Positions 3,039 through 61,500 of a stretch of 62,536 nt of DNA are shown one piece after another. Each line of letters starts with the position of its first letter. Within the stretch, counting starts at the first letter, position 1. The notes under the pieces are model-generated. The model did no database searches. It was given only the letters and a program-made list of their open reading frames with translations, and had not been told where the DNA came from. Source of the stretch: an uncultured Gammaproteobacteria bacterium (GTDB lineage Bacteria; Patescibacteriota; Microgenomatia; UBA8517). The translations under genes were made by a program, and so were the position numbers. The DNA is taken from the NCBI GenBank assembly GCA_964357925.1, contig CAYHMW010000004.1, positions 1 through 62,536 on the forward strand, written 5' to 3'.

Positions 3039-3956
3039 TTACTCAAGAAACACAGGCTGCGCCCAATTCTTCATATAGATCTCCCGCCTTTGTTCTCCTA
3101 CAAATTCACCATCTTTAAATAACAATCGAACAACTAGACCACGCCGTGTACCCTCACTCCACATCTGGTCAAACACAAAGTTGCCGAGCGAGTAATAAAC
3201 CGGCCGCTCGTTTATATACTCCACACTTTGCACCCAATGTGGATGGTGCCCAGAAATCACATCGGCTCCAGCCATTACAAGCTGTTTCGCCCATACCCTC
3301 TGTTGGGCAGTCGGCTCACTTGTATACTCTACTCCCCAATGCACACCAAGAAACAAAACGTCAACCTGGCCATCAGAGGATCGAACAAGTTCCAGGTCTT
3401 CCTCTGCAAGCTTTTTATCAAAGAAATTAAACCCCAAAAATCCAAATTTAGTATTCCCAACCTCTACTATCTTTAATGCTCCACGCCCAGTATAACCAAT
3501 GCCAGCCTCCCGCAAGTGCTCTTCCGTTTCAACTGCTCCAATTCCACCATAATCATTTGCATGATTATTCGCCAAACTCACAATATCAATATAATTTTTC
3601 AAGCCATCGAGCGCAGATGGCGGTGCGCAAAATACAGTACCTGTATTACTCGTCGGGCACTCTTCAATAATCGGATTTTCCAGATTCGCATACACAATAT
3701 CTCCAGTCCCCAAATATTCAGAAACATGAACAAAAGGATAATTCCAATCCCCTGCCTTCAAGGAAGTACTGTTAACTGTTCTCCCAAGCATAATATCTCC
3801 AACCATAATCACAGCAATCCCAGGCTCTTCAAATTGAGGAATAACTCTCCGTATGGCACCGCCAATGTCGTCACTACCCAGATTCTTCAATACAAATACA
3901 GAACCAATCACAAAAACAAAGATGATAAAAATAGCCAACGAAGTCTTATCCCTCAA
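3039..3956 (-). CDS. capA: CapA-family (poly-gamma-glutamate synthesis / metallophosphatase-like) protein
   Basis: N-terminal TM. Motifs VGDIMLGR, ANLENP, SLANNHANDYG, GVHWGVEY and GHHPH are typical of the PGA_cap/CapA family. Confidence 0.8.
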   Translation of the reverse strand: MRDKTSLAIFIIFVFVIGSVFVLKNLGSDDIGGAIRRVIPQFEEPGIAVIMVGDIMLGRTVNSTSLKAGDWNYPFVHVSEYLGTGDIVYANLENPIIEECPTSNTGTVFCAPPSALDGLKNYIDIVSLANNHANDYGGIGAVETEEHLREAGIGYTGRGALKIVEVGNTKFGFLGFNFFDKKLAEEDLELVRSSDGQVDVLFLGVHWGVEYTSEPTAQQRVWAKQLVMAGADVISGHHPHWVQSVEYINERPVYYSLGNFVFDQMWSEGTRRGLVVRLLFKDGEFVGEQRREIYMKNWAQPVFLE

Positions 3957-9188: not shown

Positions 9189-9254
9189 TGGGCAAAAAAC
9201 CGGTTTCTCCCCCCTCTACTCCTGTTTCTGATAAAATACCGGAAGAATACACAT

Positions 9255-9307
9255 AGGCCCGTAGTTTATCCTCGCCGTTCGCGAACGGCGGGATGAAATG
9301 GCATAAT
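9255..9307 (+). pseudogene. decayed partial copy of the tRNA-Trp 5' end (acceptor strand plus D arm), itself interrupted by a GC hairpin
   Basis: AGGCCCGTAGTT (9255-9266) is identical to 9568-9579 of the intact tRNA-Trp. After a 30-nt insert containing the hairpin CGCCGTT-CGCG-AACGGCG, AATGGCA.AAT again matches the tRNA D loop. Confidence 0.6.
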
Positions 9308-9312
9308 CAAAC

Positions 9313-9558
9313 ATGTATTACGTTTATGTGTTGAGAGATGTCAACAGTAAGATATATATCGGCTATTCAGCAGACTTAAAAAAACGTATTAACCATCATA
9401 AAAGCGGCAGAGTCAAATCTACAAAGACAATGCTTGGAATACAACTCTTTTATTATGAGGCCTACATAAACAGGAGAATGGCCACAGAAAGAGAGAGAAA
9501 ACTTAAGACATTTGGCTCAAGCTACCAAGGATTAATGAAACGAATTGGATTGAAATAA
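9313..9558 (+). CDS. GIY-YIG nuclease family protein (small, YhbQ-like)
   Basis: MYYVYVLRDVNSKIYIGYSADLKKRINHHKSG... matches the GIY-(x)-YIG motif and carries the conserved downstream R/E positions. Confidence 0.8.
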   Translation: MYYVYVLRDVNSKIYIGYSADLKKRINHHKSGRVKSTKTMLGIQLFYYEAYINRRMATERERKLKTFGSSYQGLMKRIGLK

Positions 9559-9567
9559 ACCAACTTT

Positions 9568-9638
9568 AGGCCCGTAGTTCAATGGCAGAATAGAGGTCTC
9601 CAAAACCTTTGACGGGGGTTCGAATCCCTCCGGGCCTG
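9568..9638 (+). tRNA. tRNA-Trp(CCA)
   Basis: Hand fold. Acceptor AGGCCCG/CGGGCCT. Anticodon arm GAGGT-CTCCAAA-ACCTT. T loop TTCGAAT. Confidence 0.9.
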
Positions 9639-9848
9639 CAAATTTAATCAAACTTTCTCCACTCTAATTTCTCTAAGGTGAATTCAAATACCGGCTTTTC
9701 TTCTATTTTTCTTTTTCTTCTTCTGACATACTCTATCTATGAAGATCATTGCCACAATATATATAATATTAGTCTTGATAAGCTTCAAAAAACTCCTGAT
9801 ACTCTTGCTCAAAAAATATAAAAACTTTTAAAAATTACAAATCCTTCT

Positions 9849-17101: not shown

Positions 17102-17299
17102 ATGGTAATGGTAAAAAAACTAAAAGGTGAATCCGAAGACAAGCTCATTGCACGCTTCAGAAAGAAAGTGCTTAACTCTGGCGTGATTTTGGAATACAAA
17201 GACCGCGAACGCTTTAAGAAAAAATCTGAGAGAAGAAAAGAGCAAAAGTACAGGATCCGTCACCAAATAGAAATCGAGAAAAAACGAGAGGCTAGATAA
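17102..17299 (+). CDS. rpsU: 30S ribosomal protein S21
   Basis: AAGGAGG RBS. The sequence ...GESEDKLIARFRKKV...EYKDRERFKKKSERRKEQK is S21-like. Confidence 0.85.
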   Translation: MVMVKKLKGESEDKLIARFRKKVLNSGVILEYKDRERFKKKSERRKEQKYRIRHQIEIEKKREAR

Positions 17300-17996
17300 A
17301 CTTCCTCACAAACAAACTCCTATGGTGAGGTGTCAGCCCGTATAGTGCTATCGCGTCTCTGTGTGCTTTTGTACCATAACCAACATTACTACCCCAGTAG
17401 TATTGTTCGTGCTCACAAGCAAGCCTGTGCATAAGCTCGTCTCTATAAACTTTAGCGATTATCGAGGCAGCAGCAATTGAAAAACTAACTGAATCTCCCT
17501 TCACAATTGCAGTTTGCCTAGTTCTTGGAATTCCCCTCAAATACGGGATATAAAACGCATCAACCAGAAGATGGGATGTCTGATGTGACATTTGTGCAAT
17601 AGCCCTTCTGTAAGCCATATTCGTGGCGAGAACAATGCCAAACTTGTTAATTTCAGCTACAGATCCTTCCCCGATCCCAAATGTTAAACAATTTCCCCTA
17701 ATCCACTTATCCGCCACCTCGCGCTCAAGCCTTGTGAGTTGCTTCGAATCATCAATCCGAACACTGTCATCCCGGACAAGTGAAACGCGATCCGGGATCT
17801 TAAAGTTAAAAGGCGCAAAGACGACAGTTGCAGCCACCACCGGTCCCGCCAACGCCCCTCTACCAACCTCATCCGCACCTGCCACCATCAATCCACGCTC
17901 CCAATGTGCCCTCTCATATTGAAAACCAATCATATAACCCAATAGTATAAACCACCCCAATTTTTTCAAATTATAGGATACAATCTCCTTATACAT
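17292..17996 (-). CDS. rnhB: ribonuclease HII
   Basis: GADEVGRGALAGPVVAA, DDSKQLT and DSVSFSIAAASIIAK motifs. Confidence 0.9.
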   Translation of the reverse strand: MYKEIVSYNLKKLGWFILLGYMIGFQYERAHWERGLMVAGADEVGRGALAGPVVAATVVFAPFNFKIPDRVSLVRDDSVRIDDSKQLTRLEREVADKWIRGNCLTFGIGEGSVAEINKFGIVLATNMAYRRAIAQMSHQTSHLLVDAFYIPYLRGIPRTRQTAIVKGDSVSFSIAAASIIAKVYRDELMHRLACEHEQYYWGSNVGYGTKAHRDAIALYGLTPHHRSLFVRKFI

Positions 17997-35070: not shown

Positions 35071-35140
35071 AATATTTATTTGAACCTGCTGTGCCCTTCC
35101 GTAGCCTTGGCGAAGGAGGGTCATCTCGCACTTCCCAACT

Positions 35141-35171
35141 GTCATCCCGCACGGAGATGCGGGATCCAGAA
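35141..35171 (+). repeat. 31-nt palindromic element, copy A (intergenic)
   Basis: GTCATCCCGCACGGAGATGCGGGATCCAGAA with hairpin ATCCCGCA-N6-TGCGGGAT. Near-identical copies lie at 48554 and 57602. Confidence 0.85.
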
Positions 35172-35394: not shown

Positions 35395-36405
35395 TTACCT
35401 TCGTGTAGTCACACTCCTCTTCCAAAGCTCAATATTCTCCATCACCATCCCAGTGCCCCGCACAACACAATAAAGACTATCCTCAGCAACATGACTAGGC
35501 ACACCAGTCTCCTCAGTCATCAGTTTAGCAAAATTCCTAAGGTTACTGGTACCCCCACTCATCACGATCCCCTTATCAATAATGTCAGCAGCAAGCTCAG
35601 GCGGAGTATCCTCTAAAACACCTTTCACAGCCCCAATTATCTGCTGTAAGGGTGGTCTGATAGCCTCAACCATGTCATCTGAAGTGATCACAACTGTACG
35701 TGGAAGCCCAAAAACCAGATCACGCCCAGATATCTCAAGTCTCTCTGGCTTGGGCAGCGGAGTAGCTGAAGCCAGCTTAATCTTAATCTCCTCAGCTGTC
35801 TGATCACCCACAATGAGGTTATATTTTTTCTTAATATAATTTTGTATCGCCTCATCAATCTTGTTACCAGCGACACGCACACTCTTGTGAATAACAACAC
35901 CGCCCAGGGAAATTACAGCAGCCTCGGCAGCTCCACCTCCCATGTCTACAATCATGTGACCAGATGGAGCGGAAACCGGAATATTCGCCCCAATTGCAGC
36001 AGCCAGCGGCTCGTCAATTAAATACGCATGAGCAGCCCCAGCCTCAAGTGTCGCATCAAGCGCAGCACGCCTTTCAACTTGAGTGCACCCAGCCGGAACA
36101 CAAACCATGACATCAGGCCTCAATAACTGCACTCTCCCTGCTACCTTATTAATAAAATACTTCAGCATGGCTTTAGTCACCTGGTAGTCTGCAATGACAC
36201 CATCACGCATCGGCCTCGAAGCAATCAAGCTATCAGGTGTCCTCCCAAGCATACGTTTTGCGTCCTCTCCAATCGCAACGACAGCATTATCCTCAGCTGA
36301 TACTGCAACAACAGAAGGCTCATTCGCCACAATCCCCTCACCCGCCACCCAAACAAGAGTGTTTGCTGTCCCCAAATCAATCGCCAGTCTTTTCCTAAGT
36401 TGCAT
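35395..36405 (-). CDS. mreB: rod-shape-determining protein MreB
   Basis: DLGTANTLV, DMGGGAAEAAVISLGG and the actin-like fold motifs throughout. Confidence 0.95.
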   Translation of the reverse strand: MQLRKRLAIDLGTANTLVWVAGEGIVANEPSVVAVSAEDNAVVAIGEDAKRMLGRTPDSLIASRPMRDGVIADYQVTKAMLKYFINKVAGRVQLLRPDVMVCVPAGCTQVERRAALDATLEAGAAHAYLIDEPLAAAIGANIPVSAPSGHMIVDMGGGAAEAAVISLGGVVIHKSVRVAGNKIDEAIQNYIKKKYNLIVGDQTAEEIKIKLASATPLPKPERLEISGRDLVFGLPRTVVITSDDMVEAIRPPLQQIIGAVKGVLEDTPPELAADIIDKGIVMSGGTSNLRNFAKLMTEETGVPSHVAEDSLYCVVRGTGMVMENIELWKRSVTTRR

Positions 36406-37763: not shown

Positions 37764-37777
37764 AACCTGAACTCTTG

Positions 37778-37849
37778 TGCTCCAACCAGGAATCGAACCT
37801 GGATCTAGCCCTTAGGAGGGGCTTGTTCTGTCCATTGAACTACTGGAGC
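37778..37849 (-). tRNA. tRNA-Arg(CCT)
   Basis: Hand fold of the reverse complement. Acceptor GCTCCAG/TTGGAGC. Anticodon arm AGCCC-CTCCTAA-GGGCT. T arm CCAGG-TTCGATT-CCTGG. Confidence 0.9.
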
Positions 37850-37923
37850 GGACAATCCCTATTATACCAGCCAATTTTTAAGCCACAAAAAAGGCTGGTT
37901 AAGATAACCAGCCAACGAACAAA

Positions 37924-39614: not shown

Positions 39615-39758
39615 CGGGGAGTAGCTCAGGGGTAGACCTGCCCGCCATCAGCTGTCGCCTCAGGCGACTGCAGGCGGGGTGCGCAGCGGGGACTAGTGTA
39701 TCGGCAACACGCCATGTTCGGGACATGGAGACACCGAGTTCAATTCTCGGGTCCCCGA
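39615..39758 (+). tRNA. tRNA-Pro(CGG) interrupted by a GC-rich insertion of about 70 nt in the D-arm region; possibly a pseudogene
   Basis: 5' part CGGGGAG-TA-GCTC-AGGGGTA-GA. 3' part CCATG-TTCGGGA-CATGG, AGACA, CCGAG-TTCAATT-CTCGG, GTCCCCG-A. Acceptor pairs 1-72 through 6-67 are Watson-Crick. Confidence 0.65.
39637..39679 (+). repeat. GC-rich hairpin element, copy inside tRNA-Pro
   Basis: CCTGCCCGCCAT...GCAGGCGGGG. Outer stem CCCGCC/GGCGGG, inner stem GTCGCC-TCA-GGCGAC. Confidence 0.7.
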
Positions 39759-39767
39759 CAAAAATCA

Positions 39768-39872
39768 TTATCTTAACCCAGATTTTTTGACGTAGTCTCA
39801 AAAACTGGAGTTATCTTAACCCAGATTTTTTGACGTAGTCTCAAAAACTGGAGTTATCTTAACCCAGATTTT
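39768..39872. repeat. 43-bp tandem direct repeat: two full units plus a 19-nt partial unit formed by the 3' end of atpC
   Basis: TTATCTTAACCCAGATTTTTTGACGTAGTCTCAAAAACTGGAG at 39768-39810 and 39811-39853. TTATCTTAACCCAGATTTT again at 39854-39872, which is the last codons plus stop of atpC. Confidence 0.9.
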
Positions 39873-48013: not shown

Positions 48014-51000
48014 ATGACATATCTACCCAACAATACCCAAAACCAACCCTTAAGTATCCATGAAGCATCTGAATTTCTTGGCGTCTCAACTAAAACTCTC
48101 CGAAGGTGGGAAGCAAAAAAAGTTCTCGTCCCTGTTCGTACCGCTGGCGGCCACAGACGCTACAGTTTTAAAAAGCTTGTAGAATTCAAAAACAAAGGCG
48201 CCAAAAGTAAATCAAATACAACCTACGATTCATCAACAATCTTCCCCCCAAGCTTCGACGCACTCCCAACAGTTTCCTACTTCACAAAACCCCTGCCGGA
48301 AACCCAAACGTCGATTGAGCCTGTATTGCTTCCGCATTTAAAACCCCTCGAACCAAGCGAAGTACCAGGGGCAACTGATCTACTCAAAAATGCAATTTCC
48401 GCAACAATATTAACCTCACTCGTAGCCTTAGTCTTGGCTGGATTTTCTATTCTATTTACCGCAGTCAAAATCAACCTACCAAGCATCGGGGATGCGCAGC
48501 CCCGAGGCGATCGGAGTGAGCTTTTCGGGGCCAACCCCAACCAAGAGAACACAGTCATCCCGCACGAAGATGCGGGATCCAGAATTGAAAACGATGTATT
48601 GGCTGCCAGTTCCATTCTCCAAGATGTAAATCTCAACATTAACGTCCCCACAAACATCGATAATAGCTTTCGCGTCAGCGGCGCTTCAACCTTCGATGAC
48701 GACATTGCCTTAAACGGCACAAACGTCACATCTACCCAAGATGAAGTGAATCTCTTCATTGGCACTAGTCCAGGGACGATCAACATCGGCGGTGGAGCTT
48801 CAACCACAAGCATCGGTGGAATTGCAAATCTGGGAGGCAATTCTCTCATCTCCCCTGGCGATCTACTGATTGACCCGGGCGGAGGCGGCGTGTCCATAGG
48901 CACGGGAACTGCAAGTACCATCAATCTGGCAGGAGACGATTTTTTCGTTTCTGGGGACTTCGAAGTTGACGGCTCCCTTGTCGTCGGCAGCGATTCAATT
49001 ACTGACCTCACAGGTTCCGGTCTTCAAGTAAGCTCAGGTGCTCTCCAAGCAACCCTAGGTACCTCAATCACAACCGGCGAAATAGAAAACGACACAATCC
49101 TGGAAGTCGATTTGGATATCACAAACGATCCGACAGACAACTACATTCTAACCTACGATTCGGCAACAGCCGGCTTTACTTGGGTAGCATCAAGTGCCGC
49201 AGTAATCACAATCGAAAACAACGACACAGGGGTAGGCACAGATGTCACGACAATCGACTTCTCAACAGACTTCACAGTTGCAGCTTCCCCAGCAAGTGAA
49301 ACAAACGTTTCCATCGCAGACGATATATTAAGCTTTACAGAATTCAGTGACACCCTGACAGCAGAAGACGGTACAATCCTCGACCTCTCGTCAATCAATC
49401 ATTCAACAACAGCTATTGAAGGTATCAAACTACCGCAAAGTGCTCTCTCAAGCGGCCCGAGTTCTGGTGATGGCTTCTTGGCATTCGACACTGATGATAA
49501 TCAAGTCAAAGTTTGGTACTCTGGTGCCTGGAGCTCAATTGCCGGAGCCTCAACCACCCTCCAACAGTCCTACGCCAATGATGCCGATGGCTCAGACGCA
49601 ATAATCGCCCTTACAGCTGACGACGATTCCATAATCGTAAGAAACCCCAGCTCAAGTGGCACAGACTCTGGATACTTAATGAGCCTTGATCAGCTAAATA
49701 CAGGCAGCGTTGATGCTCTTCAAGTCAGCAATTCCGGCACCGGCGACAGTGTCCAGATAACAAATTCGTCAACTGGTTTAATAATGAACCTCGCGGCTTC
49801 CGGTTCAGGAACTACAGCAGATGGCATATTAATATCTCAAACAGGATCGGGAACGATCACTGACGCAATTGATCTAAGCGATGAAACGATCACAAACGCA
49901 CTAAACATCGGTGCGAATATAATCATAGGAACAACCGCTTCAATCGACTTCACCAACTTTGATGTTGCAACAACAGGTGCAATTACAACAGGTGCAGCAG
50001 GTCAAGATGGCCAACTCGTAATCTACAATGACCTGGCCACTGATAGAAGCATAACGATTAACCCAAGTTCCTCTCAGGGAGCAGACATCACCTATACACT
50101 CCCCCCAGATGATGGTGCAGCTGATAATTATGTGTTAACAACAGATGGCAGTGGAGTTCTCAATTGGGAAGCAGTTACGGGAGCAGGCGCTGTTGATGAG
50201 ACAGGAACAAACACATCCGGCCAAATAGCGTACTTTACAGACGACAACACTCTCACCTCTTCATCGAATTGGGTATTTGTAGACAGTCAAACAACAGGCA
50301 ACACACTCTCAGTAGCTGCAACGACTCTAACCACAGGTAACCTGCTTGATGGAACCGCAACCTATGTCGACGCAACAGGAGGGACAGATAGTGCAATTGA
50401 TATCAATCTAACTAATAATCCAGTAACCAACGCAAACACGCTCCGTGGCTTAGACATTGGTTTCACTGATGCAGGAAGCCTTGCAAACACAATTTATGGG
50501 GTATACATAGATGCAACAACAGCAAACTCTAGTGACACTACATATGCAGGAGTGCTTCTTGGCGGCAACGTAGGAATCAATGATGCCACTCCAGATGCCA
50601 GACTTGAGATTTTAGCTACAACTGAACAACTAAGACTCACCTACACCGACGGTACTGTTGATGCAAGATTTACCGTAGACAGTAGCGGCAATCTCAATAT
50701 AGACGTTACAGGAACCAAGACCATCATAACCGACGATCTTCAGGTAACAGGCAACGACATTCTAAGCTCAAGCGCCACGGCAGCCCTAACATTATCAGGA
50801 ACAGATGTCACAGTAGCAGGTGATTTGACAGTTTCAGGCGGAGACATCATCGGCATCGCAACCACCAATCTCCTAAATACTGCCTCCACAACCATAAACT
50901 TCGCCTCTGCAGCCACCACTCTAAACATGGCAGACGCCGCAATCACAGGGACAATCGATATTGGAGGCGTCACAAGCGATGGCACAAGCACTATAAATAT

Positions 51001-54000
51001 CGCAACAAACGGTGCTGCTAACGCAGATGTTATAACAATTGGTAATTCAAATGCAGGAACAACACTTGCCTTGACAGGTGGAGATGACTGGAATATATCA
51101 ACAACTGGCATACTAACTCTTTCTGCATCAGCTGCACAAACCAGTGCAATAGTGGCCACAGATACCGACTACACAAACTTCGCAGATATCGGCGACAACG
51201 ATATAACAGGGACCACGTTCGATATCATTGGAACAACAGGAACAATTAACTTAACATACTTCGACGTATCGGCAACCGGTGCGATCACAACAGGAGGGGC
51301 CACCCAAGATGGCCAATTTATAATCTACAATGACCTTGCGACAGACCGCACAATCACCATAAACCCAAGCTCCTCCCAGTCTCTAGATATCACCTACACC
51401 CTTCCACCAGATGATGGCGGAGCTGACAATTATGTGTTGACTACAGATAGTACGGGAGTCCTAAACTGGGAAGCTATAACAGGAGCAGGTGGAGTTGGCG
51501 GCTCTGGCACTCAAAACGCGCTAGCCAAATTCACAGTCACTGGCAACACTATTGGAGACTCAAGTATCACCGACGATGGCACTACAGTAACTCTCTCAAC
51601 TGACGTCTCCTTAAGTTTAGGAGCGGGCGAAGAAGTCTCCCTTTCAAACACCGGTGCAAACTCTGATCAACTATCACTCTCCGTATCAGGAGTAACTACA
51701 ACTGGGATTGACGCATTATCACTTTCCTTCACCCAGGCAGACGACATCGACGCAACCGACGACAACGCAGCCGCACGAATCGCACTTACATCCTCCTCCA
51801 CTCAAGCGGATCTCCTATATGGAATCGACTTGGCAAATATCACGGCAGGAGCAGCGACAGAGACCGCTCTAAGAATTGGCTCTGGCTTTGATAATCTATT
51901 CGAACTTGAAGGCTCAACAAATGACGGCATAGAACTATTTGTTCAACTAACAGATCCAACTAGTACCGACAAAACAATAACATTCCCTAACGACACAGGA
52001 ACAGTCTGTCTCAGTTCAGGCAACTGTGCAGGTGGATCAGGAGGCAGTAAATGGACCGATAGTGGTGTAATCACCTACTTCACAGCCTACACAACAGACG
52101 ATGTCGCAATTGGTGATACCACAAGCGCCTCTGAATTCTACTTTGATATTTTGAGCACAGATAGCGGCCAACTATCGATGAACCCAAGCTCAGTTGGAAC
52201 AAAGATCGACATCAATCTTGAAACTGAATGGACTAGCGGGACCCTAATCAACGCAGACTTCGGAAGTAGCACCACACAAGGGGCTGACCTAGACATAACC
52301 GGCTTGGTGCTTAATCTTAATACTAATCTAACCGCAAACGCTGATGCGGACGTGACGGGAATAAATGTCCAAACCCCAGTCTTAACCTCCACAGAAGCCG
52401 TAACTACAAATTACTCTGTATACAATAATTCCGCCTCAGGGGCTCTTACTCAAAACACAGCTGCAGGAACAATTAATTGGCGAGGGCTAAATCTCACTAT
52501 GCCCAATATTACAGCGACGACTGGCACCATTACATCTGATGGCGTCAGAGTAGCAAACGGGACAATCACCACAGGGGGCACACAATCTCTCTTCCATGCC
52601 ATAACAACTGGCGTCGGAGCAGGAACACTTTACGGCCTAAATATTGACGGCATCACAGCAAGTGGTGGCACAGAACAAGCAATCGCTATCGGCGCAGGCT
52701 GGGACACTGACATAAACGCAACAACTTCTCTCGAAATTGGCATCGGTGGAGCCAACGAGTTAACACTAACTGCAACAGCTCTAGCTCCATCGACTGATTC
52801 AGGGCAAGATCTCGGCACCTCAAGTCTTCAATTTGCAGATCTCTATCTTGATGGTGGAAATGTGAATATCGATAACGCAACAGACATTGATATAGATGAC
52901 AATGTATCAGGTGCTCTTTCTATATCACAAGGTACCAATGACTATATAAATATAACAACAACAGACACGACTACTACATTTCTAATTGACATGCCCGTTG
53001 CCGGATCAAGCTCAACCACGGCAAACCTATTCACCTCAAATCTCACAAAAACAATAAATATAGGAACAGGGACAGACGGCGACACAATTAATCTAGGGGA
53101 TGGAACAGGCACAAACGCAATTGATATTGGCGGGGTGGGAAACTCTGGAACAGACACTATAAACATCTCAACCGAAGCTACAGCGTCCGATGTCATTACT
53201 ATTGGCAACTCCCACGCCTCTACAACCCTGGCTCTCACCGGTGGTGATGATTGGAGCATAAGTACGGCTGGGCTCGGCATATTCAGCCAGGTTGGTATAG
53301 GTACCACTGCTCCTGATGCAGCTCTTGAGATTAACCATGCAACAGGAGATAGCTTGAGGTTGACATATAACGATGCAAATGGCTCTGCTGCTGATTACAC
53401 AGACTTCTCTCTAAGTTCAACCGGTGCACTCACCTTGACTGGATCTGCAGCAACACTGGCAGCCAGCGCAACAGCAGAGAAAACATTCTTGACCCTAACC
53501 CCAGGAACAATAACCTTAACCGCTCCAACAGCCGTGACATCTTTGATGGAAACCTCAGTGATAACAGGGGCAACAATTGCAGCAAATGCAGCAACCACAG
53601 TGGATAAGGCAACAACACTGTCTCTGGTAGCACCAATTGACAGTACTAATGCAACACTAACTGCAGACTCAGCTCTCCGAATATTAAATGTAACCTCTGG
53701 TGCAGGTACCCTCACAACTCAGTATGGATTGTTTGTAGAGGACCTAACAGCAGGAGCAAGCGACTACGGCATCTACATTGCAGGCGCTGATACCTACTCT
53801 CTATATACAGCAGCCGGGTCAGTGAGCCATCTCTTTGAAGCAGCAGAAGGCCTTGTCCTCGATTCAGAAGCAACTGATTCAACCGGCACAGCTGGAGTAA
53901 TTGATCTTGATCTTGATGCCACAAGCTCACAGCAAGCCATTAACCTCGATATTGAAACCATAGCTGATGCAGGAGTAGATACTTTGATTGGTTTGGATAT

Positions 54001-57000
54001 ATTAGCAACGCAGACCTCCACAGACGATGATGTCGTCTACGGGATGAGAGTCCAAAACCTCGGAGGGACTCCTGATGCTGGTAACGAATATGGCATCTAC
54101 CAAGCAGGCATAAGCTGGGACTATGGACTATATGTAGAAGATGCAGCACTTTTCAACACAACTGCCGTAATCAACGGAACGTATCTTGGACTTGACTACG
54201 ATGCAGATGCAGGAAATGTAATATCGGTTGGAACCGGGCCCGAACAATCAACAGGGTCGCTATTCTGGGGCAATGACTTACTTTGCGATCCGGCACTAAC
54301 TAACTGCGGCTGGGCAACTTCAGCCAGCTCTCCTTTTACCCAATCAGGAGCTGATCCGAATGAGATTATTGATAAAAGCGATCTTACAGCCAGACTGAGA
54401 CTCCAATATGGTGATGCAGGAGATATCCAACTTGAAATTGACTCAACAAGTAACACAATTGTCCCCACAGCAGATGCGGTCTCGATTGATTTAAGCTCAG
54501 GAGCCACAAACACAGGAATCATAACAGCAGATGTTGATGGACTCTACTTGGTCATGGAAGCAGGTAATATAGTTGCAGATGGAGCAATCTCAGGGGTCCA
54601 CATTAACTTTGATCCAATCACAGGTGGTGGTGCAGGAGATCTGTTCTACGGATTAAACATTGATGGCATCACAGCAACAGGTGCAACTGAGGCAGCCATC
54701 AATATTGGCTCAGGCTGGGATACAGGCATCGCCATTTCATCAGCCATCGCTGGTGAAGCACTTGATCTAACGAGTGTTGCGGGCATCAGGACAACCGCCC
54801 TCATTGATCTCAACGAAAACAATACAACAGGAACTGTTCCAACCATCCAATGGGATAGTGCCGCAGATACCACAAGGGGTGGATTCATGGACATCAACCT
54901 TGCAGGTGCTCTTGCTACTGAAAACTTAATTGACCTAACAACCTCAGCCGCCTGGACCAGTAACCTACTCGATATCAACCTAGGAGCTGGCATCTCAACT
55001 GGCAATGTCATGGATATAACCTTTGGAACTGCAGCCCACACAGGTAATGCCATTGATCTAAACATGGGAACCAATGTGGCAGGCCAAGCCATCGATATTA
55101 ATTTGACAGGTGCAAGGACAGATGACGGCATCAACATTGATGATGATTCAACAGGCAATACTCCCATTCTTGACATGAACATTAGTGGAGTGCGAACGGG
55201 CAATGCCATCGATATTACATATGCAACTGCCGCCGCCACAGAGAATGCCATTGATCTAAATATGGGCACCAATGTGGCAGGAGATGCCATAAACATCAGT
55301 GCCGCCGCTACAACCGGAGATTCAATTGACATTACTCCCGGTGCAGCCAGGACTTCAGGTGCTGCTCTCAAGATTACAGACGGTTCCCTAGCAGCTGCAG
55401 TCACCGACGCCCTCATCCAACTCGACATCACAGGAACATCAGACACCAACAGCCTTGATTTTGACATCTCAGGAGGCAGCGCAGTCTCCGGTAACCAGCT
55501 TGACATCACCTACTCAAGTGCAGCCCACACAGGTAATGCCATTGACCTCAACATGGGCACCAATGTGGCAGGAAACGCTCTTGCCATCGCTACCGCCGGT
55601 ACCACGACTGGCCGCGCTATTGAAATCATTTCTGATGGTACTATTGTGGACTCACTCATCGATGTGGATATGAATTCGGGTGATTGGCAAGGCAACATTT
55701 TGGAAGTCACCACCGGCGGCTCTGCTTCTGACGGTGACGTGTTTAACATTACTTTGGAAGCTCTCGATGTTGCTGTACAAAATATGGTGGTAACAAACGC
55801 CGCCGCTACAACTGCAGCAGGATGGCTCATGGATGTCGATACTTCAGCTGCCTGGACTGGCATTGCCATGGATATTGATATTGCTGGTGCCGTCATCTCA
55901 ACTGGTAACTTCCTGGATGTCACCTACTCAAGTGGAGCTCACACAGGTAATGCATTCGACTTAAACATGGGTACAAACGTGGCAGGTAATGCAATTGACA
56001 TAGCAACTGCAGCCACAACTGGTAATGCAATCGACATAACAACAACCGGGGTCTTCACCAACGAACTCATCGATATCAATGTAGGAGCCAATGCTGCCAC
56101 AGGCGATGTAATTAATATAGATATGGGCTCAACGGCCACTGGTGCCCAAGCCTTTGTTCTAACTAACACCTCAGCCTCAACAGTCAACCAAGTTGACTTA
56201 ACAGCCAACTCACTCGTTAGTGGCAATCTAATTGACCTAAACTCCACCTCAACAGGGCTAACAACAGGAAGCTTCATATCATCGTCATTCACAGGTAATT
56301 CAACCTTCACTGGAGACCTAAACTACTTTGAATGGGCACCAACCACCTCGACAACTGCCAGTGGCGATATCTTCCAAATAAACATCGGTACAAGTGGCAC
56401 CACAACAGGCAAGCTTTTCCGTGTCAGCGATACAGGCAGTGACTTATTCGCCATAAGCGAGACAACTATCACAAGCGCTCTTCCTCACGAATTCACAGCC
56501 GCAGGAGACCTAAGCGTCGCCTACGATATCGCCTTTACAAATCAGACAGCCAGCTACATCAAATCAAACGGCCCAGTAACAATCGAGGCAGGCGAGTCTT
56601 TTGAGAGCAATAACCTTACACTCAAAACCTACAACTCAGGCGATATCGTCTTTGACGTTCCAGCAACCGGAACAGCAATTGTACAGGGAGCATTCTCAGT
56701 TGATTCTCAACAAACTTTAACTGCGAATAGTACCACTCCCTCAGTTGCTGCCGGTTCGCACTTTATAACTGCAAATACCTCTGATCCTACTCTTATATCT
56801 AATTTTACAAGTGGAACCACAGGTCAAATGATTTTCGTTGAAGCGGGGGATGCAGTAACAGATTTTGATTGTACTGCTTCTAGTCTGAACTGCGGCAATG
56901 CAGATATTACCGCAGTTACTGCTGGAGACACATTCAATTTTATATACGATGGAACCAATTGGAACATGATTAGCTGGATAGATAACGGCACCAGCTATGC

Positions 57001-58111
57001 CACCGGCGGCGCAGATTTAGCAGAGCTATTCGTTAGCTACATTCCTCTGGTCCCAGGCGAAATTGTGAAAGTCGATCCAGACAACGACAAACAAATTGTC
57101 CCAACTAACTCAAGCTATGACCACTCAGCTGTAGGGGTTGTATCAACAGCTCCCGGAATCACTCTAGGCACGGAGACCGAAGGGAAAACAAACTATGCCA
57201 TAGCCCTCGCAGGCCGCGTCCCCGCCAGGATCGCCGAAAACTCAGAACCAATCAGAAAAGGCGACTTTATTGCTACATCAAATGAAGTTGGACGTGCAAT
57301 GAAGGCAACTTCCCAGGGCAATGTAATCGGTACCGCTATGGAAGACTGGACCCCGGGATCCGGCCAAGACAAGATCGTCATGTTCATAAACAACAGTTAC
57401 GCCAATCCAAACCCAGCCCCCGCAGATTCGGGCAGTGTCATCCCGGACCCGGATCCGGGATCTGAAACATTGGTATCAGACGTTGAGTCCCTTGAAAGTC
57501 GTGTCACCCTCCTCGAAGACCAACTCGACATATTCTTGAGCACAACCCTCAACACACCAGTCGCCACTGATTCGGGAACAGCAACATCATCCGGAAATAT
57601 TGTCATCCCGCACGAAGATGCGGGATCTGGAAGCTTCGAGAAGCTGACCACGACTGACCTGTCTGTCTCAGGAGATGCAGTCCTTGGGGATGTCACAATC
57701 ACAGGTAATCTCAACATCGGTACGCTATCAGTTGACGGTTTTGGCAATTCTATTGATGCAATAGGAACATTGGCCATCCAACCACTGGCCCTAGGCAACA
57801 TCGAGTTCTTGGGAGGCCTCATAACCTTTGATACAGATGGCAACATAGTGGCCAAAACTATTGAGGTAGAAAAGATCTCAATCAAAGGCGATTCAGCCGG
57901 CATTGGTGCAATTCCAGAAGGTGAAAACGAAGCCTACATCGCCACAGATCAAGTCACAACAGACTCACTAATATTAGTAACACCAACAAGCGGCACCCGC
58001 TATCCATTGGTCGTAGCCACCAAAGAGCCAGGCCTCGGCTTCACCGTTCAAATCCCAGTGGCACCACTCTCAGACATTAATTTTGATTGGTTAATTGTGG
58101 ACAAACGATAG
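48014..58111 (+). CDS. giant (3365 aa) surface protein: N-terminal MerR/excisionase-like HTH, one TM, a long repetitive T/S/G/A/D/N-rich ectodomain and a C-terminal globular region
   Basis: Uninterrupted ORF. HTH LSIHEASEFLGVSTKTLRRWEAKKVLVPVRTAGGHRRY (aa 13-50). TM AISATILTSLVALVLAGFSILFTAV (aa about 127-151). Multiple long internal repeats. Confidence 0.85.
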   Translation: MTYLPNNTQNQPLSIHEASEFLGVSTKTLRRWEAKKVLVPVRTAGGHRRYSFKKLVEFKNKGAKSKSNTTYDSSTIFPPSFDALPTVSYFTKPLPETQTSIEPVLLPHLKPLEPSEVPGATDLLKNAISATILTSLVALVLAGFSILFTAVKINLPSIGDAQPRGDRSELFGANPNQENTVIPHEDAGSRIENDVLAASSILQDVNLNINVPTNIDNSFRVSGASTFDDDIALNGTNVTSTQDEVNLFIGTSPGTINIGGGASTTSIGGIANLGGNSLISPGDLLIDPGGGGVSIGTGTASTINLAGDDFFVSGDFEVDGSLVVGSDSITDLTGSGLQVSSGALQATLGTSITTGEIENDTILEVDLDITNDPTDNYILTYDSATAGFTWVASSAAVITIENNDTGVGTDVTTIDFSTDFTVAASPASETNVSIADDILSFTEFSDTLTAEDGTILDLSSINHSTTAIEGIKLPQSALSSGPSSGDGFLAFDTDDNQVKVWYSGAWSSIAGASTTLQQSYANDADGSDAIIALTADDDSIIVRNPSSSGTDSGYLMSLDQLNTGSVDALQVSNSGTGDSVQITNSSTGLIMNLAASGSGTTADGILISQTGSGTITDAIDLSDETITNALNIGANIIIGTTASIDFTNFDVATTGAITTGAAGQDGQLVIYNDLATDRSITINPSSSQGADITYTLPPDDGAADNYVLTTDGSGVLNWEAVTGAGAVDETGTNTSGQIAYFTDDNTLTSSSNWVFVDSQTTGNTLSVAATTLTTGNLLDGTATYVDATGGTDSAIDINLTNNPVTNANTLRGLDIGFTDAGSLANTIYGVYIDATTANSSDTTYAGVLLGGNVGINDATPDARLEILATTEQLRLTYTDGTVDARFTVDSSGNLNIDVTGTKTIITDDLQVTGNDILSSSATAALTLSGTDVTVAGDLTVSGGDIIGIATTNLLNTASTTINFASAATTLNMADAAITGTIDIGGVTSDGTSTINIATNGAANADVITIGNSNAGTTLALTGGDDWNISTTGILTLSASAAQTSAIVATDTDYTNFADIGDNDITGTTFDIIGTTGTINLTYFDVSATGAITTGGATQDGQFIIYNDLATDRTITINPSSSQSLDITYTLPPDDGGADNYVLTTDSTGVLNWEAITGAGGVGGSGTQNALAKFTVTGNTIGDSSITDDGTTVTLSTDVSLSLGAGEEVSLSNTGANSDQLSLSVSGVTTTGIDALSLSFTQADDIDATDDNAAARIALTSSSTQADLLYGIDLANITAGAATETALRIGSGFDNLFELEGSTNDGIELFVQLTDPTSTDKTITFPNDTGTVCLSSGNCAGGSGGSKWTDSGVITYFTAYTTDDVAIGDTTSASEFYFDILSTDSGQLSMNPSSVGTKIDINLETEWTSGTLINADFGSSTTQGADLDITGLVLNLNTNLTANADADVTGINVQTPVLTSTEAVTTNYSVYNNSASGALTQNTAAGTINWRGLNLTMPNITATTGTITSDGVRVANGTITTGGTQSLFHAITTGVGAGTLYGLNIDGITASGGTEQAIAIGAGWDTDINATTSLEIGIGGANELTLTATALAPSTDSGQDLGTSSLQFADLYLDGGNVNIDNATDIDIDDNVSGALSISQGTNDYINITTTDTTTTFLIDMPVAGSSSTTANLFTSNLTKTINIGTGTDGDTINLGDGTGTNAIDIGGVGNSGTDTINISTEATASDVITIGNSHASTTLALTGGDDWSISTAGLGIFSQVGIGTTAPDAALEINHATGDSLRLTYNDANGSAADYTDFSLSSTGALTLTGSAATLAASATAEKTFLTLTPGTITLTAPTAVTSLMETSVITGATIAANAATTVDKATTLSLVAPIDSTNATLTADSALRILNVTSGAGTLTTQYGLFVEDLTAGASDYGIYIAGADTYSLYTAAGSVSHLFEAAEGLVLDSEATDSTGTAGVIDLDLDATSSQQAINLDIETIADAGVDTLIGLDILATQTSTDDDVVYGMRVQNLGGTPDAGNEYGIYQAGISWDYGLYVEDAALFNTTAVINGTYLGLDYDADAGNVISVGTGPEQSTGSLFWGNDLLCDPALTNCGWATSASSPFTQSGADPNEIIDKSDLTARLRLQYGDAGDIQLEIDSTSNTIVPTADAVSIDLSSGATNTGIITADVDGLYLVMEAGNIVADGAISGVHINFDPITGGGAGDLFYGLNIDGITATGATEAAINIGSGWDTGIAISSAIAGEALDLTSVAGIRTTALIDLNENNTTGTVPTIQWDSAADTTRGGFMDINLAGALATENLIDLTTSAAWTSNLLDINLGAGISTGNVMDITFGTAAHTGNAIDLNMGTNVAGQAIDINLTGARTDDGINIDDDSTGNTPILDMNISGVRTGNAIDITYATAAATENAIDLNMGTNVAGDAINISAAATTGDSIDITPGAARTSGAALKITDGSLAAAVTDALIQLDITGTSDTNSLDFDISGGSAVSGNQLDITYSSAAHTGNAIDLNMGTNVAGNALAIATAGTTTGRAIEIISDGTIVDSLIDVDMNSGDWQGNILEVTTGGSASDGDVFNITLEALDVAVQNMVVTNAAATTAAGWLMDVDTSAAWTGIAMDIDIAGAVISTGNFLDVTYSSGAHTGNAFDLNMGTNVAGNAIDIATAATTGNAIDITTTGVFTNELIDINVGANAATGDVINIDMGSTATGAQAFVLTNTSASTVNQVDLTANSLVSGNLIDLNSTSTGLTTGSFISSSFTGNSTFTGDLNYFEWAPTTSTTASGDIFQINIGTSGTTTGKLFRVSDTGSDLFAISETTITSALPHEFTAAGDLSVAYDIAFTNQTASYIKSNGPVTIEAGESFESNNLTLKTYNSGDIVFDVPATGTAIVQGAFSVDSQQTLTANSTTPSVAAGSHFITANTSDPTLISNFTSGTTGQMIFVEAGDAVTDFDCTASSLNCGNADITAVTAGDTFNFIYDGTNWNMISWIDNGTSYATGGADLAELFVSYIPLVPGEIVKVDPDNDKQIVPTNSSYDHSAVGVVSTAPGITLGTETEGKTNYAIALAGRVPARIAENSEPIRKGDFIATSNEVGRAMKATSQGNVIGTAMEDWTPGSGQDKIVMFINNSYANPNPAPADSGSVIPDPDPGSETLVSDVESLESRVTLLEDQLDIFLSTTLNTPVATDSGTATSSGNIVIPHEDAGSGSFEKLTTTDLSVSGDAVLGDVTITGNLNIGTLSVDGFGNSIDAIGTLAIQPLALGNIEFLGGLITFDTDGNIVAKTIEVEKISIKGDSAGIGAIPEGENEAYIATDQVTTDSLILVTPTSGTRYPLVVATKEPGLGFTVQIPVAPLSDINFDWLIVDKR
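48554..48584 (+). repeat. 31-nt palindromic element, copy B (in frame, encodes VIPHEDAGS)
   Basis: GTCATCCCGCACGAAGATGCGGGATCCAGAA, with the hairpin at 48557-48578. Confidence 0.85.
57602..57632 (+). repeat. 31-nt palindromic element, copy C (in frame, encodes VIPHEDAGS)
   Basis: GTCATCCCGCACGAAGATGCGGGATCTGGAA, with the hairpin at 57605-57626. Confidence 0.85.
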
Positions 58112-58117
58112 TTTGTC

Positions 58118-58134
58118 AAATTTTCAATTTTCAA
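58118..58134. repeat. left arm of a 17-nt perfect inverted repeat flanking the four-helix-bundle gene
   Basis: AAATTTTCAATTTTCAA is the reverse complement of 58569-58585. Additional ATTTTCAA octamers lie nearby. Confidence 0.8.
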
Positions 58135-58158
58135 AACTCAATTTTCAATCAAATTAAA

Positions 58159-58530
58159 ATGAATAAAAACCAAAACAGTAAATACGATCTCGAAGAACGA
58201 ACTGCAAAATTAGCCGAAGATATCATTACCCTTGTCAAAAAAGTAAAGGCCAACCACATTAACAAAAGAATAATATCCCAACTTGTCGGAAGTGGAGGTT
58301 CCTTAGGAGCGAACTATTGTGAAGCAAATGAAGCTGAAAGCAAAAGAGATTTTATACACAAAATAGGCATCTGTAAAAAAGAGACAAAAGAAACTAAACA
58401 TTGGTTAAGATTATTGGCAACCTCAAACCCTGAAATTAAAGACAGCCTAAAGTTGATCTGGAAAGAAACCCATGAGTTACTATTAATCTTTAGCAAAATA
58501 AAAGAAAATGCTAAACAAACAAAACATTGA
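58159..58530 (+). CDS. four-helix-bundle protein (23S rRNA intervening-sequence protein family)
   Basis: YDLEERTAKLAEDIITLVKKV...QLVGSGGSLGANYCEANEAESKRDFIHKIGICKKETKETKHWLRLL matches the family pattern. Start set at the ATG at 58159. Confidence 0.8.
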   Translation: MNKNQNSKYDLEERTAKLAEDIITLVKKVKANHINKRIISQLVGSGGSLGANYCEANEAESKRDFIHKIGICKKETKETKHWLRLLATSNPEIKDSLKLIWKETHELLLIFSKIKENAKQTKH

Positions 58531-58535
58531 AAATT

Positions 58536-61500
58536 ATGAAATTTAAAAGTTCATTGAAAATTGGTGGCTTGAAAATTGAAAATTTACACATAAAAACTTA
58601 CGTTGCCCTTGGTCTCATCCTCATCCTCTCCCCAATCATCTTGTTTGGAATCTTTAAACCCAAAGGAGCAGAAGCTGAATGGTTTGATGATAGTTACTCA
58701 TACAGACAAAGGTTCAGCTTTACCCACAATGCAACAATATCGGCAGAACGCGCCATTACAGTTACCTTTGACAATGCAGAGATGATCACAGACACTGTAA
58801 TGCAGAGTGACTGTGATGATGTGCGCTTTACTGATATCAATGGCAAGGTACTTCTTCACGATTTAACAAGTACTTGTAATAACGCATCAGCAACGTATGA
58901 GGTAATCTTCAACTCAATTATAAATGGTACAAATGTAGGATTCATCTACTACGGAAACCCCAGCGCAGTGAATGCTGAAGTAGACTCAACAGTCTACACT
59001 GCCCTAACGCCCTCAGGCGGTGACCCAGCAGCCATTACAAACCGCACAAATGAAACCAAAGGCCCAGGCCCTATAGGTTGGTGGAAATTTGATGAAGGAG
59101 TAGACAATACCTGTAGTGGTGGAACAAATGATGTATGCGATAGTACACCAGGTGCCAACAATGGCGCCATGACAGGGGGCACAACCTGGAAAACCAATGA
59201 TTTCTGCATCTCCGGTAACTGCGTCCAATTCGACGGCATCAACGACGATATCGTCCTCACAGACAACGATCAACTGGACATGGGCACCGGATCATTTACC
59301 ATACAATACTGGATGAAGCACACCAGCACCTTTGGCGAATGGATACTCAGGAAAAACGAGACCGTAGGCGCTGATGGAGGATACGGATTTGACATCCGAA
59401 GCGACGGAGATATCCATTTTGGTATCACGGATCAAGCGGGATTTCCGAGAGACGCCGCGGAGTCCGCGTTTAACGACAACAGGTGGCACGACGACGCCTG
59501 GCACTTCGTCGTCGGAGTCAGAAACGGATCGACAAGCCTTCTCCTGTATGTTGATGGCGTGGAAGTCGCATCTGACCTAAGTATATCGACATCCACCACC
59601 ATTTCCAACGACGATCCGCTCTATTTCGGTCAAAACGGGTCAAACGGAAATTACTTTGTCGGCATGCTGGACGAAATCAAGATGTACAAGTATGCACGGT
59701 CAGCGGCCCAGATCAAAAACGACTATATCCGATACACAAGTTCCGAAGGACTATCGGCAGCGATAGGTACCAAGAGTCAATCGCCACTGGCGGACGGCCT
59801 CCAAGGATATTGGCCCATGAACGAGACAGGCACTACCGCACCGGTCGACTATTCCAATAATGGCAATGATCTGCTCAGGAGAAATACTCCCACTATGGCA
59901 GCAGCAAAGTACGCCAACGGAGCAGACCTTGAAAGCGCGAGTACGACATACTTCTCACGCTCTGATGACTCCACGTTCTCCATCACCGGCGATCTCTCCA
60001 TAGCCACCTGGATCAAGCCGGAGTCCAATACAGCGTCCACGCAGTACAACATCGTCGCCAAGATGGATGGCGCCAACGATAGCTATGCCTTGGTCCAATA
60101 CGGCGACGAGCTAAGAATGTACATTGATTCAGAATCCGACTACGCCACAACTGACTCGACAAACCTGGCAACAGGTACCTGGTACCATGTACTGGGCACG
60201 TATGATGCCAGCGCACAAGAAATAAAAATCTATGTCAACGGTATCTCACAAGCGGTAACCGTCACCGGTACGATACCCACATCCATAGGTGATGACACCG
60301 GAGTTTTTCATGTCGGCGCACAGGACCATACCACAACACCGATCAACTCCTATGACGGCTTCATCGATGACGTACGTTTCTACAGCCGGACTCTCTCTCA
60401 AGACGACGTAAACATGCTCTACAACTGGGCCCCAAGACCCATCGGCTATTGGCCACTAGATGAGAATACTGGTTCCACAACAACGGATCGTTCTGGAAAT
60501 TCCTACGCAACTTCCATGGACAGTTTCACAGGTGATGGGTCGGACTGGGTACCAGGCAAATACGGATCAGCTCTCAACTTCGATGGTACAAATGATGAAA
60601 TTACGATTACAGACGGTGCAAGCTTTTCCACAAACACATATTCAATATCTGCCTGGGTATACCGCACAAGTGACAGTGGCACAAATGAGGTAGTCTTTGA
60701 TAACCGGGATGCACTCGACGACGGCACGAGAATAATTGTGGATGGAGATCTCGACAGACTCAGATGTACATATAACGCAACCAATACATCAACGGCCACT
60801 AGCTCAATATCGACTGGAATTTGGTACCACGTTGCGTGCACATCTGACGGTACAACCCAAACAACATACTTAAATGGCATAAAAATCAATTCAGACGCAA
60901 TCACAGGGAGCATTGCTGAAACGACAAATGCCGTAATTGGTGGCCAAAGCTACTCCGCAGGGAATAACTTCCCGGGCAACATAGACGATGTAAGGATCTA
61001 CAACTACCCCCGCACCCCAGGACAAATAGTGGAAGACATGAACGCCGGCCACCCCCTCGGCGGCTCCCCCATTGGAACCCAAACTATTTACTGGAAATTT
61101 GATGAGCAGTATGGAACAGGGTCGGGCGCTGCTAAAGATTCGATAGGCAATGAAAACGGCGACATCGATGCCTCTGCCAGCTGGCTCACACAAAACTCAT
61201 GTAAATTCAATGGCTGCCTACTCTTTGACGCGGCAGGAGAAGAAGTCTTAATAACAGATGCCAACGATACCGATATCAATTTCAACGGCAGTGAACCATT
61301 TTCTGGATCAGCATGGGTATACGTAACGACAATGCCGGGAGCCTCAGACGAGGATGCCATAATTGCAAAATGGGATGAATCAGCCGGAGCCGAAAAAAGA
61401 GCTTACAGAATGTACATAACAGACGCAGATGGTGATTCAGCTGCAAATCTCGTGGCAGAAGTATACGACGAATCGGCAAACCAAGCACTCTCTGCCGCAA

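Follow-up and report, generated by a model that had tools for sequence, protein, structure and literature searches.

How does a giant surface protein come to carry the same nine residues, VIPHEDAGS, near both ends of its ectodomain, encoded each time by a palindromic DNA sequence that also lies between two other genes? The question arose from an earlier note, which described a 31-nt element at three sites and offered several possible roles for it: recombination or deletion end points, RNA-processing hairpins, or a functional peptide such as a processing site. We analyzed the whole 62,536-nt stretch of DNA (a Patescibacteria contig from groundwater, hereafter the window), together with public genome, metagenome, and viral sequences.

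The Window Holds Five Oriented Copies of a Short Hairpin

Scanning the window with the 31-nt consensus returned three matches without mismatches, at 35141-35171, 48554-48584, and 57602-57632, all on the + strand, where 100 dinucleotide shuffles lead one to expect 0. The three sites are therefore as reported, and so is the 8-bp stem ATCCCGCA/TGCGGGAT with its 6-nt loop, which is found in all of these main copies. When the window was searched for ATCCCG-N(2-30)-CGGGAT, five matches were obtained against 0.03 expected. The inventory of the earlier note is thus sound for the main sites and too short as a total, since variants at 57437 and 17766 and a half copy at 35120 had been overlooked. The copies are listed below (SRM, Ssn-related motif, is introduced further on).

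35140..35171 (31-mer from 35141), + strand: copy 1; TGTC tag, stem ATCCCGCA/TGCGGGAT, loop CGGAGA, tail CCAGAA; non-coding, in the spacer between mreB and the tagA-like gene; matches the SRM pattern; ssDNA hairpin of -9.8 kcal/mol
48553..48584 (31-mer from 48554), + strand: copy 2; AGTC tag, loop CGAAGA, tail CCAGAA; the giant gene reads through it in frame, giving VIPHEDAGS (aa 181-189) in a variable linker that follows the TM helix; matches the SRM pattern
57601..57632 (31-mer from 57602), + strand: copy 3; TGTC tag, loop CGAAGA, tail CTGGAA; read in frame as VIPHEDAGS (aa 3197-3205) within the giant gene; matches the SRM pattern
57436..57467 (from 57437, GTCATCCCGGA-CCCGGA-TCCGGGATCTGAAA), + strand: variant copy 4; TGTC tag, stem ATCCCGGA/TCCGGGAT, loop CCCGGA, tail CTGAAA; the giant gene reads it in frame as VIPDPDPGSE
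17765..17804 (from 17766, GTCATCCCGGA-N14-TCCGGGATCTTAAA), + strand: variant copy 5; TGTC tag, stem ATCCCGGA/TCCGGGAT, 14-nt loop, tail CTTAAA; antisense within rnhB, where it reads as FKIPDRVSLVRDDSV in a loop of variable length
35120..35131, + strand: 5' half copy GTCATCTCGCAC, 21 nt upstream of copy 1

Alignment of the copies with 100 nt of flank on either side gives sharp repeat edges, and because the flanking sequences are unrelated, the unit can be delimited to about 31-35 nt. All five full copies occupy the + strand, and each is predicted to fold as ssDNA into a hairpin of -7.1 to -9.8 kcal/mol. Copies 1 to 3 are near-identical (29-31 of 31 nt). In every copy the stem is 8 bp long and starts with AT; it is preceded by a tag that reads TGTC in four copies and AGTC in one, closed by a loop of 6 nt (four copies) or 14 nt (one), and followed by a tail that begins with CCA in two of the five and with CTG, CTG, and CTT in the remainder. 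While loop and tail vary, the GTC before the palindrome and the C directly after it are found in five of five copies. The two forms of the stem, ATCCCGGA/TCCGGGAT and ATCCCGCA/TGCGGGAT, differ by a compensatory change of C-G to G-C. The copies are, in short, an oriented DNA hairpin repeat with an unpaired (T/A)GTC head, an 8-bp AT-first stem, a free loop, and a C right after the stem.

The element stands by itself in the window, where no further family of repeated GC-rich hairpins was found. An Rfam scan of the window returned tRNAs only and no family matching the element, and scans for terminators, promoters, and tandem repeats around the intergenic copy gave nothing at the element. A CRISPR repeat was considered and rejected: the copies are spaced 17375, 13413, 8883, and 165 nt apart, and no array was found. 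A search of the literature for the derived peptides or the exact element sequence retrieved nothing relevant.

Four of the five copies lie inside genes, and all are singletons (five copies in 62.5 kb of one contig). The genes concerned are the following.

48014..58111, + strand: giant gene, 3365 aa; N-terminal MerR-type HTH, TM helix, and giant repetitive ectodomain; contains three of the five copies
17292..17996, - strand: rnhB (RNase HII); carries variant copy 5 antisense
35395-36405, - strand: mreB; copy 1 lies 224 nt downstream

With 16% of the contig, the giant gene holds three of the five copies (binomial P ~0.03). Both VIPHEDAGS copies are indeed in frame, at aa 181-189 and 3197-3205 of the 48014-58111 ORF. 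That they bracket the ectodomain symmetrically is true only of this pair: a variant third copy sits 165 nt upstream of the second, which makes the arrangement less tidy than had been claimed. The copy at 35141 does fall between mreB and the tagA-like gene, upstream of a WecG/TagA-type gene whose longest ORF takes its start ATG from the CAT of the element's GTCAT; the true start of TagA is more likely some 70 nt further in.

Proteins built like the giant one form a Patescibacteria family of 2000-4600 aa, in which a cytoplasmic MerR-type HTH is followed by one TM helix and a giant repetitive ectodomain (window 48014-58111; P0225, P0234, P0236, and P0238). It is curious to find a DNA-binding domain tethered to the membrane as part of a giant surface protein. 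The C-terminal module resembles phage tail-fibre and peptidase G2/S74-type domains (Pfam PF24146, PF11962, and PF13884 on homologues).

As for the strand, a negative GC skew along the entire window (1-62536; -0.03 to -0.31) and a majority of - strand genes together place the whole contig on one replichore. The five hairpins all occupy the C-rich + strand (P = 0.06), so that a cleavable strand would not be the lagging-strand template. A replication-linked orientation as a general rule was dropped, 184 public loci among the matches listed being split 92:92 with respect to GC skew.

Selection Targets the Nucleic Acid and Not the Peptide

The three main sites could be read as a protein feature, VIPHEDAGS being a conserved peptide motif that serves as a processing or sorting site of the giant protein; the giant gene does encode the same nine residues in frame at two places, one toward each end of the ectodomain. 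The peptide is nevertheless missing at both positions from all the homologues examined. VIPHEDAGS is in none of 12 homologous giant proteins with the MerR-HTH/TM N terminus, in which the segment from the TM helix to the conserved 'VLAATS..VNV' block is variable in both length and sequence. Likewise, neither VIPHEDAGS nor VIPDPDPGS is present in homologues of the last 316 residues (up to 48% identity), and the C-terminal sites fall, in the alignment of these homologues, in gap-rich linkers between conserved blocks. The same DNA, moreover, is non-coding at 35141 and antisense in rnhB, and the coding copies are identical at 29 of 31 nt with no synonymous drift, which is clearly not the pattern of a conserved peptide over drifting codons that the earlier note had named as evidence against a DNA element. 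We regard a functional peptide as extremely unlikely. Selection has instead acted on the nucleic acid, because the five copies include a non-coding and an antisense one besides the three in sense, because the stem variants keep their pairing through a double change, and because homologues of both ends of the giant protein do without VIPHEDAGS, the sites lying in linkers of variable length.

How such an element persists inside genes is less of a puzzle. By inspection, five of its six reading frames are open, so that it can survive in frame wherever a protein tolerates about 10 extra residues, and its survival there is unremarkable. Here the tolerant places are two variable linkers of the giant surface protein and a variable loop of RNase HII. 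The rnhB copy lies between 'GPVVAA.VVF' and 'DSK', in a loop that ranges from ~8 to ~40 residues among orthologues. The collections contain no close relatives for an empty-site comparison, the best RNase HII being 57-59% identical and this contig the only long one of its organism.

In other Microgenomates, the rnhB loop has independently received palindromic inserts that keep the frame (L246 ~860-960, P0098; L247 ~250-400, P0021; L248 ~2450-2560, P0049). Two of these three begin and end GTCAT...ATGAC, that is, as head-to-head GTCAT-tagged units (ssDNA ΔG of -16.7 and -13.2 kcal/mol), and the third is a 60-nt palindrome unrelated to them (-20.3 kcal/mol); the loop seems to be a hotspot for insertions. 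Homologues of the C terminus of the giant protein have other repeat-like peptides in the same linkers, VIASEAKQSQTGIATDSSSPRNDV in P0006 and VVSSERSESRDL in P0007 (alignment columns ~280-400), which look like read-through of other palindromic repeat families.

The Copies Belong to the CGTC-Tagged REP/SRM Superfamily

Judged by their sequence, the copies are dispersed members of the CGTC/TGTC-tagged REP superfamily, also called SRMs. CGTC-tagged REPs have an unpaired CGTC tag, often TGTC or CCTC, an 8-9-bp stem with complementary A and T at positions 1 and 2, a loop of 4-5 nt (other lengths in some families), and a short unpaired CCA tail (Di Nocera et al. 2013, BMC Genomics 14:522; PMC3733652). 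They occur in many dispersed copies, mostly intergenic and often as head-to-head dimers, include Neisseria dRS3 and Rickettsia RPE-4/RPE-6, and have no known transposase; in-frame intragenic copies occur, notably in DNA replication and repair genes (PMC3733652). The window copies resemble them in the TGTC variant of the tag, the 8-bp AT-first stem, in two of the five the CCA-type tail, and the presence of in-frame copies inside ORFs, including a replication/repair gene, rnhB. They differ in having loops longer than 4-5 nt, in being single units and not head-to-head dimers, and in coming from a phylum outside those listed (PMC3733652).

The best-studied relative for our purpose is the Neisseria Transformation Sequence (NTS), CGTCATTCCCGCGMAVGCGGGAATCYRG (Chenal et al. 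2025, Nat Commun 16:2388; PMC11893778). NTS/SRM is bound as ssDNA, on the forward strand only, by SsnA, a 94-aa single-domain GIY-YIG nuclease (CDD cd10448) that cuts a few nucleotides upstream of the motif and lowers transformation by NTS-bearing DNA; mutagenesis showed that the three bases before the palindrome are key to cleavage and the C after it to binding, and that the loop is dispensable (PMC11893778). Genes for SsnA are usually flanked by SRMs, 71% of homologues having at least one within 5 kb, and NTS cluster near membrane-protein genes, with 2% intragenic in Neisseria meningitidis (PMC11893778). The published search pattern, HGTCWYN(0-2)YYVSBRHN(0-5)WNVSBRGN(0-2)RNCYNB (PMC11893778), is matched in the window by the copies at 35140, 48553, and 57601, with 0.19 matches expected, and is narrowly missed by the other two, at 57436 on the last tail base only and at 17765 on loop length. 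The invariant GTC and 3' C beside a variable loop and tail mirror the published mutagenesis. With NTS the window copies further share the GTCAT head, the CCCGC/GCGGG core, and the ATCYRG tail, which, with the pattern matches, supports the suggestion that this is a nucleotide-level element of the kind whose translation yields VIPAKAGI-like peptides. As in the SRM/NTS system, the element has a defined orientation, folds into a hairpin when single-stranded, and is enriched in a gene for a surface protein, on a contig that carries a small single-domain GIY-YIG gene. The differences lie in the host, a member of the Patescibacteria, in the loop of 6 or 14 nt, and in the location of four of the five copies within genes, against 2% in N. 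meningitidis.

Two other groups of repeats are worth comparing. Like the Rickettsia palindromic elements (RPE), the window copies are palindromic DNA read through as extra residues in tolerant regions of conserved proteins; unlike the classical RPE-1 (100-150 bp), the unit measures 31-40 nt and is closer to RPE-4/6. GTAG-tagged REPs and REPINs, which are mobilized by RAYT transposases, are similar as short dispersed hairpins with an unpaired tetranucleotide tag and differ in that the tag here is GTC(A), not GTAG; no RAYT or IS200-type gene was found on the contig. The feature is thus largely explained by existing knowledge, and what is new is the phylum and the unusual intragenic bias.

The Hairpin Is Widespread and Its Stem Covaries

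Scanning one genome per species with the pattern GTCATCCCGSA-N(2-20)-TSCGGGATC yielded at least 120 loci, and the matches listed come from Alphaproteobacteria, Betaproteobacteria, Coxiellaceae, Chloroflexi, Omnitrophota, Fibrobacter, Balneolales, Sulfurovaceae, and Patescibacteria. Among them the commonest form is GTCATCCCGGA-CTTGA-TCCGGGATCCA(T/G), and a Candidatus Daviesbacteria contig has ...GTCATCCCGGACCCGATCCGGGATCCAGAAT, with the CCAGAA tail of window copies 1 and 2. A metagenome scan limited to 6-nt loops listed matches on contigs of 31-70% GC. Since the search pattern left two stem positions free, it allowed a direct covariation test: these positions pair in 268 of the 270 genome and metagenome matches listed (Fisher P <= 1e-16). 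Among the public matches listed, 360 of 389 have C or T ahead of GTC, C-CA(T/G/C) usually follows the stem, and loops fall into classes of 5, 6, and 14-20 nt. Long ORFs are strongly depleted of these public copies (26% inside vs. 82% background among the matches listed), whereas four of the five window copies are inside genes. In IMG/VR, 105 loci on viral or proviral contigs bear the motif (L249-L353), a count that may include host flanks as well as true phage DNA; one of these contigs, L315, has five same-strand copies in 14.6 kb. A Ca. Daviesbacteria locus (L022, 7638-7702) has two GTCAT-tagged hairpins, with stems ATCCCGGA and ATTCCAGC, tail to tail and 13 nt apart, which indicates that more than one variant of the family coexists in a Patescibacteria genome.

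A Small GIY-YIG Protein Is a Candidate Partner

When all six reading frames of the contig were scanned for the motif, a single GIY-YIG gene emerged, the sole candidate there for a partner nuclease. Two features are relevant.

9313..9558, + strand: 81-aa single-domain GIY-YIG protein, candidate Ssn-type nuclease; directly 5' of tRNA-Trp; Pfam PF01541, E = 4.6e-13
9264..9298, - strand: degenerate SRM-like hairpin TTTCATCCCGCCGTTCGCGAACGGCGAGGATAAAC (TTTCATCCCGCC...GGCGAGGATAAAC); ends 14 nt upstream of the GIY-YIG start codon; has TCATCCCGC in common with the SRM; the G of GTC and the C following the palindrome are missing

The protein belongs to a Patescibacteria family of ~80-aa proteins. Contigs with an identical GIY-YIG sequence come from groundwater metagenomes (ENA ERZ1292625 and ERZ1292619, 'Hain_H41'). 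The profile of this family aligns with that of small GIY-YIG proteins from Sphingopyxis, Ciceribacter, and metagenome loci whose genes adjoin SRMs; hhalign gives the alignment a probability of 98.9% (E = 2.6e-17), with 41% identity over 69 columns. The family is equally similar to UPF0213 proteins and structures (profile E = 2.3e-11). It lacks the C-terminal segment of 20-25 residues (W.R.WK..LI...NP.W.DL) of the SRM-adjacent Ssn-like proteins and, at 81 aa, its window member is shorter than SsnA (94 aa). The closest SRM, strict or variant, is 8.2 kb from the gene, which is thus not in the SRM-gene-SRM arrangement of the known systems. Membership of this protein in the Ssn type is, on such sequence comparisons, a candidate assignment. 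An association of the family with the motif in relatives was also considered and dropped, as three loci (L243-L245, 45 kb in total) with GIY-YIG homologues of 56-62% identity have no GTCAT-tagged hairpin.

The GIY-YIG gene lies directly 5' of tRNA-Trp in four of four Patescibacteria loci (window 9254-9639; L243 9900-10441; L245 10001-10335; L241 2853-3179), a synteny that suggests another kind of biology, linked to tRNA. Partial copies of tRNA-Trp flank the gene: the window has the 13-nt TAGGCCCGTAGTT on either side of it, at 9254-9266 and 9567-9579, and L243 has a 5' half-tRNA upstream and a tRNA-like copy downstream. The ORF is preceded by a hairpin with a conserved loop, TTCGCGAA, and a covarying stem. 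This arrangement is suggestive of a mobile GIY-YIG cassette linked to tRNA, one that has entered at tRNA-Trp or targets it.

Discussion

Our preferred explanation, which we consider probable though well short of certain, is that the copies are oriented SRM/CGTC-REP hairpins that act at the nucleotide level as ssDNA sites for an Ssn-type nuclease. The + strand would be exposed single-stranded in incoming transforming DNA or in recombination or replication intermediates, and a small, Ssn-type nuclease with a single GIY-YIG domain would then bind its hairpin, the 81-aa protein encoded at 9313-9558 being a candidate for this enzyme. The enzyme would nick a few nucleotides 5' of GTC; the nick would shorten homology and could thereby modulate recombination around motif-bearing loci, above all the giant surface-protein gene, which, much as NTS cluster near membrane-protein genes in Neisseria, has three of the five window copies. 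The role of a nuclease is one that we infer from the parallels with Neisseria and Wolbachia. Against this explanation stand the loops of 6 and 14 nt, compared with 4-5 nt in typical CGTC REPs, and the fact that these are mostly intragenic singletons, where CGTC REPs are usually intergenic and often dimeric. The 81-aa protein adds further counterpoints in its equal similarity to UPF0213 proteins, its missing C-terminal segment, the 8.2 kb to the closest SRM, the homologue loci without a tagged hairpin, and the synteny with tRNA-Trp.

A bolder version holds that an SRM system has moved into coding sequence, the hairpins at both ends of the ectodomain being ssDNA cut sites for a minimal, tRNA-Trp-linked GIY-YIG nuclease of 81 aa and defining a cassette open to controlled replacement or deletion by incoming DNA; we find this rather doubtful.

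Several other readings compete with this explanation. The copies may simply be selfish or relict REP-like repeats, miniature elements that spread and decayed, are tolerated in linkers, and have no present function for the host, a possibility that we take seriously while thinking it the less probable one. CGTC REPs lack a known transposase and are on record inside genes (PMC3733652); the window copies are few and single, with variable loop and tail, and there is a half copy besides; independent palindromic inserts have entered the same rnhB loop in other Microgenomates; and the loci of GIY-YIG homologues are without the motif. Mere decay sits poorly, however, with three near-identical copies (29-31 of 31 nt), with pairing kept by compensatory change, and with a critical GTC and 3' C that are invariant in five of five copies while loop and tail drift. 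The two VIPHEDAGS copies could also be a recombination substrate, direct repeats mediating in-frame deletion or exchange of the 9-kb ectodomain and so surface variation. They share 26 nt of unbroken identity and are 9048 nt apart, a spacing of 3016 codons, so that deletion between them would keep the frame. Yet 26 nt is about the lower limit for RecA-dependent exchange, the third copy breaks the symmetry, and no variant contigs were found, the same-population contigs recovered spanning the GIY-YIG region only. Even though dRS3/NTS have long been proposed to promote or limit recombination beside surface genes (PMC11893778), we deem this role unlikely.

An action in RNA, as a hairpin in mRNA stability, processing, or termination, appeals to the position of most REPs downstream of ORFs and to the RNA-level action proposed for them (PMC3733652), and the stem could form in RNA too. 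What is constant, however, is the orientation on the DNA strand (five of five) and not that relative to transcription: the asymmetric tag and tail follow the DNA strand, being sense in the giant gene and antisense in rnhB and in the mreB-tagA spacer. There is no T-run, terminator-like tail or site, and no Rfam family, and Neisseria SsnA does not bind the RNA form of its motif (PMC11893778). RNA-processing hairpins, one of the roles first suggested, therefore fare badly, and we give the RNA reading little credence. A double-stranded operator for a dimeric regulator, such as the MerR-type HTH with which the giant protein begins, would account for a perfect palindrome of 22 bp; the motif is common, though, in phyla that lack proteins of this kind, a symmetric operator would not be expected to have a conserved asymmetric tag and tail, and four of the five sites are in coding sequence with none in a promoter-like spacer, which makes an operator very unlikely.

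The odd 'peptide repeat' of a giant surface protein thus turns out to be read-through of a known pan-bacterial DNA hairpin, which averts its misannotation as a processing motif, and the CGTC-REP/SRM family is extended to the Patescibacteria. These bacteria are thought to depend on DNA uptake, so that a system restricting ssDNA or modulating recombination would be biologically relevant to them. If the 81-aa GIY-YIG family is the cognate nuclease, a very small site-specific ssDNase would join the Ssn toolbox; if it is not, the element is simply an ordinary representative of a repeat family already on record. Should the coding-sequence cassette be real, Ssn biology would reach an ultra-small episymbiont phylum and intragenic sites, with the smallest Ssn-type enzyme.

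Other Repeats in the Window

Directly after the giant gene lies a gene for a protein of the 23S rRNA-intervening-sequence family (PF05635; window 58087-58600), bracketed by a 28-nt AT-rich inverted repeat (58118-58145/58558-58585). Elsewhere, a perfect 43-nt tandem repeat of 2.4 copies (39768-39872) stands directly 3' of tRNA-Pro (39687-39759), and an inverted partial copy of it at 37886-37908 adjoins tRNA-Arg (37777-37849); between them, the two bracket a 1.9-kb segment with a TP_methylase-family gene.
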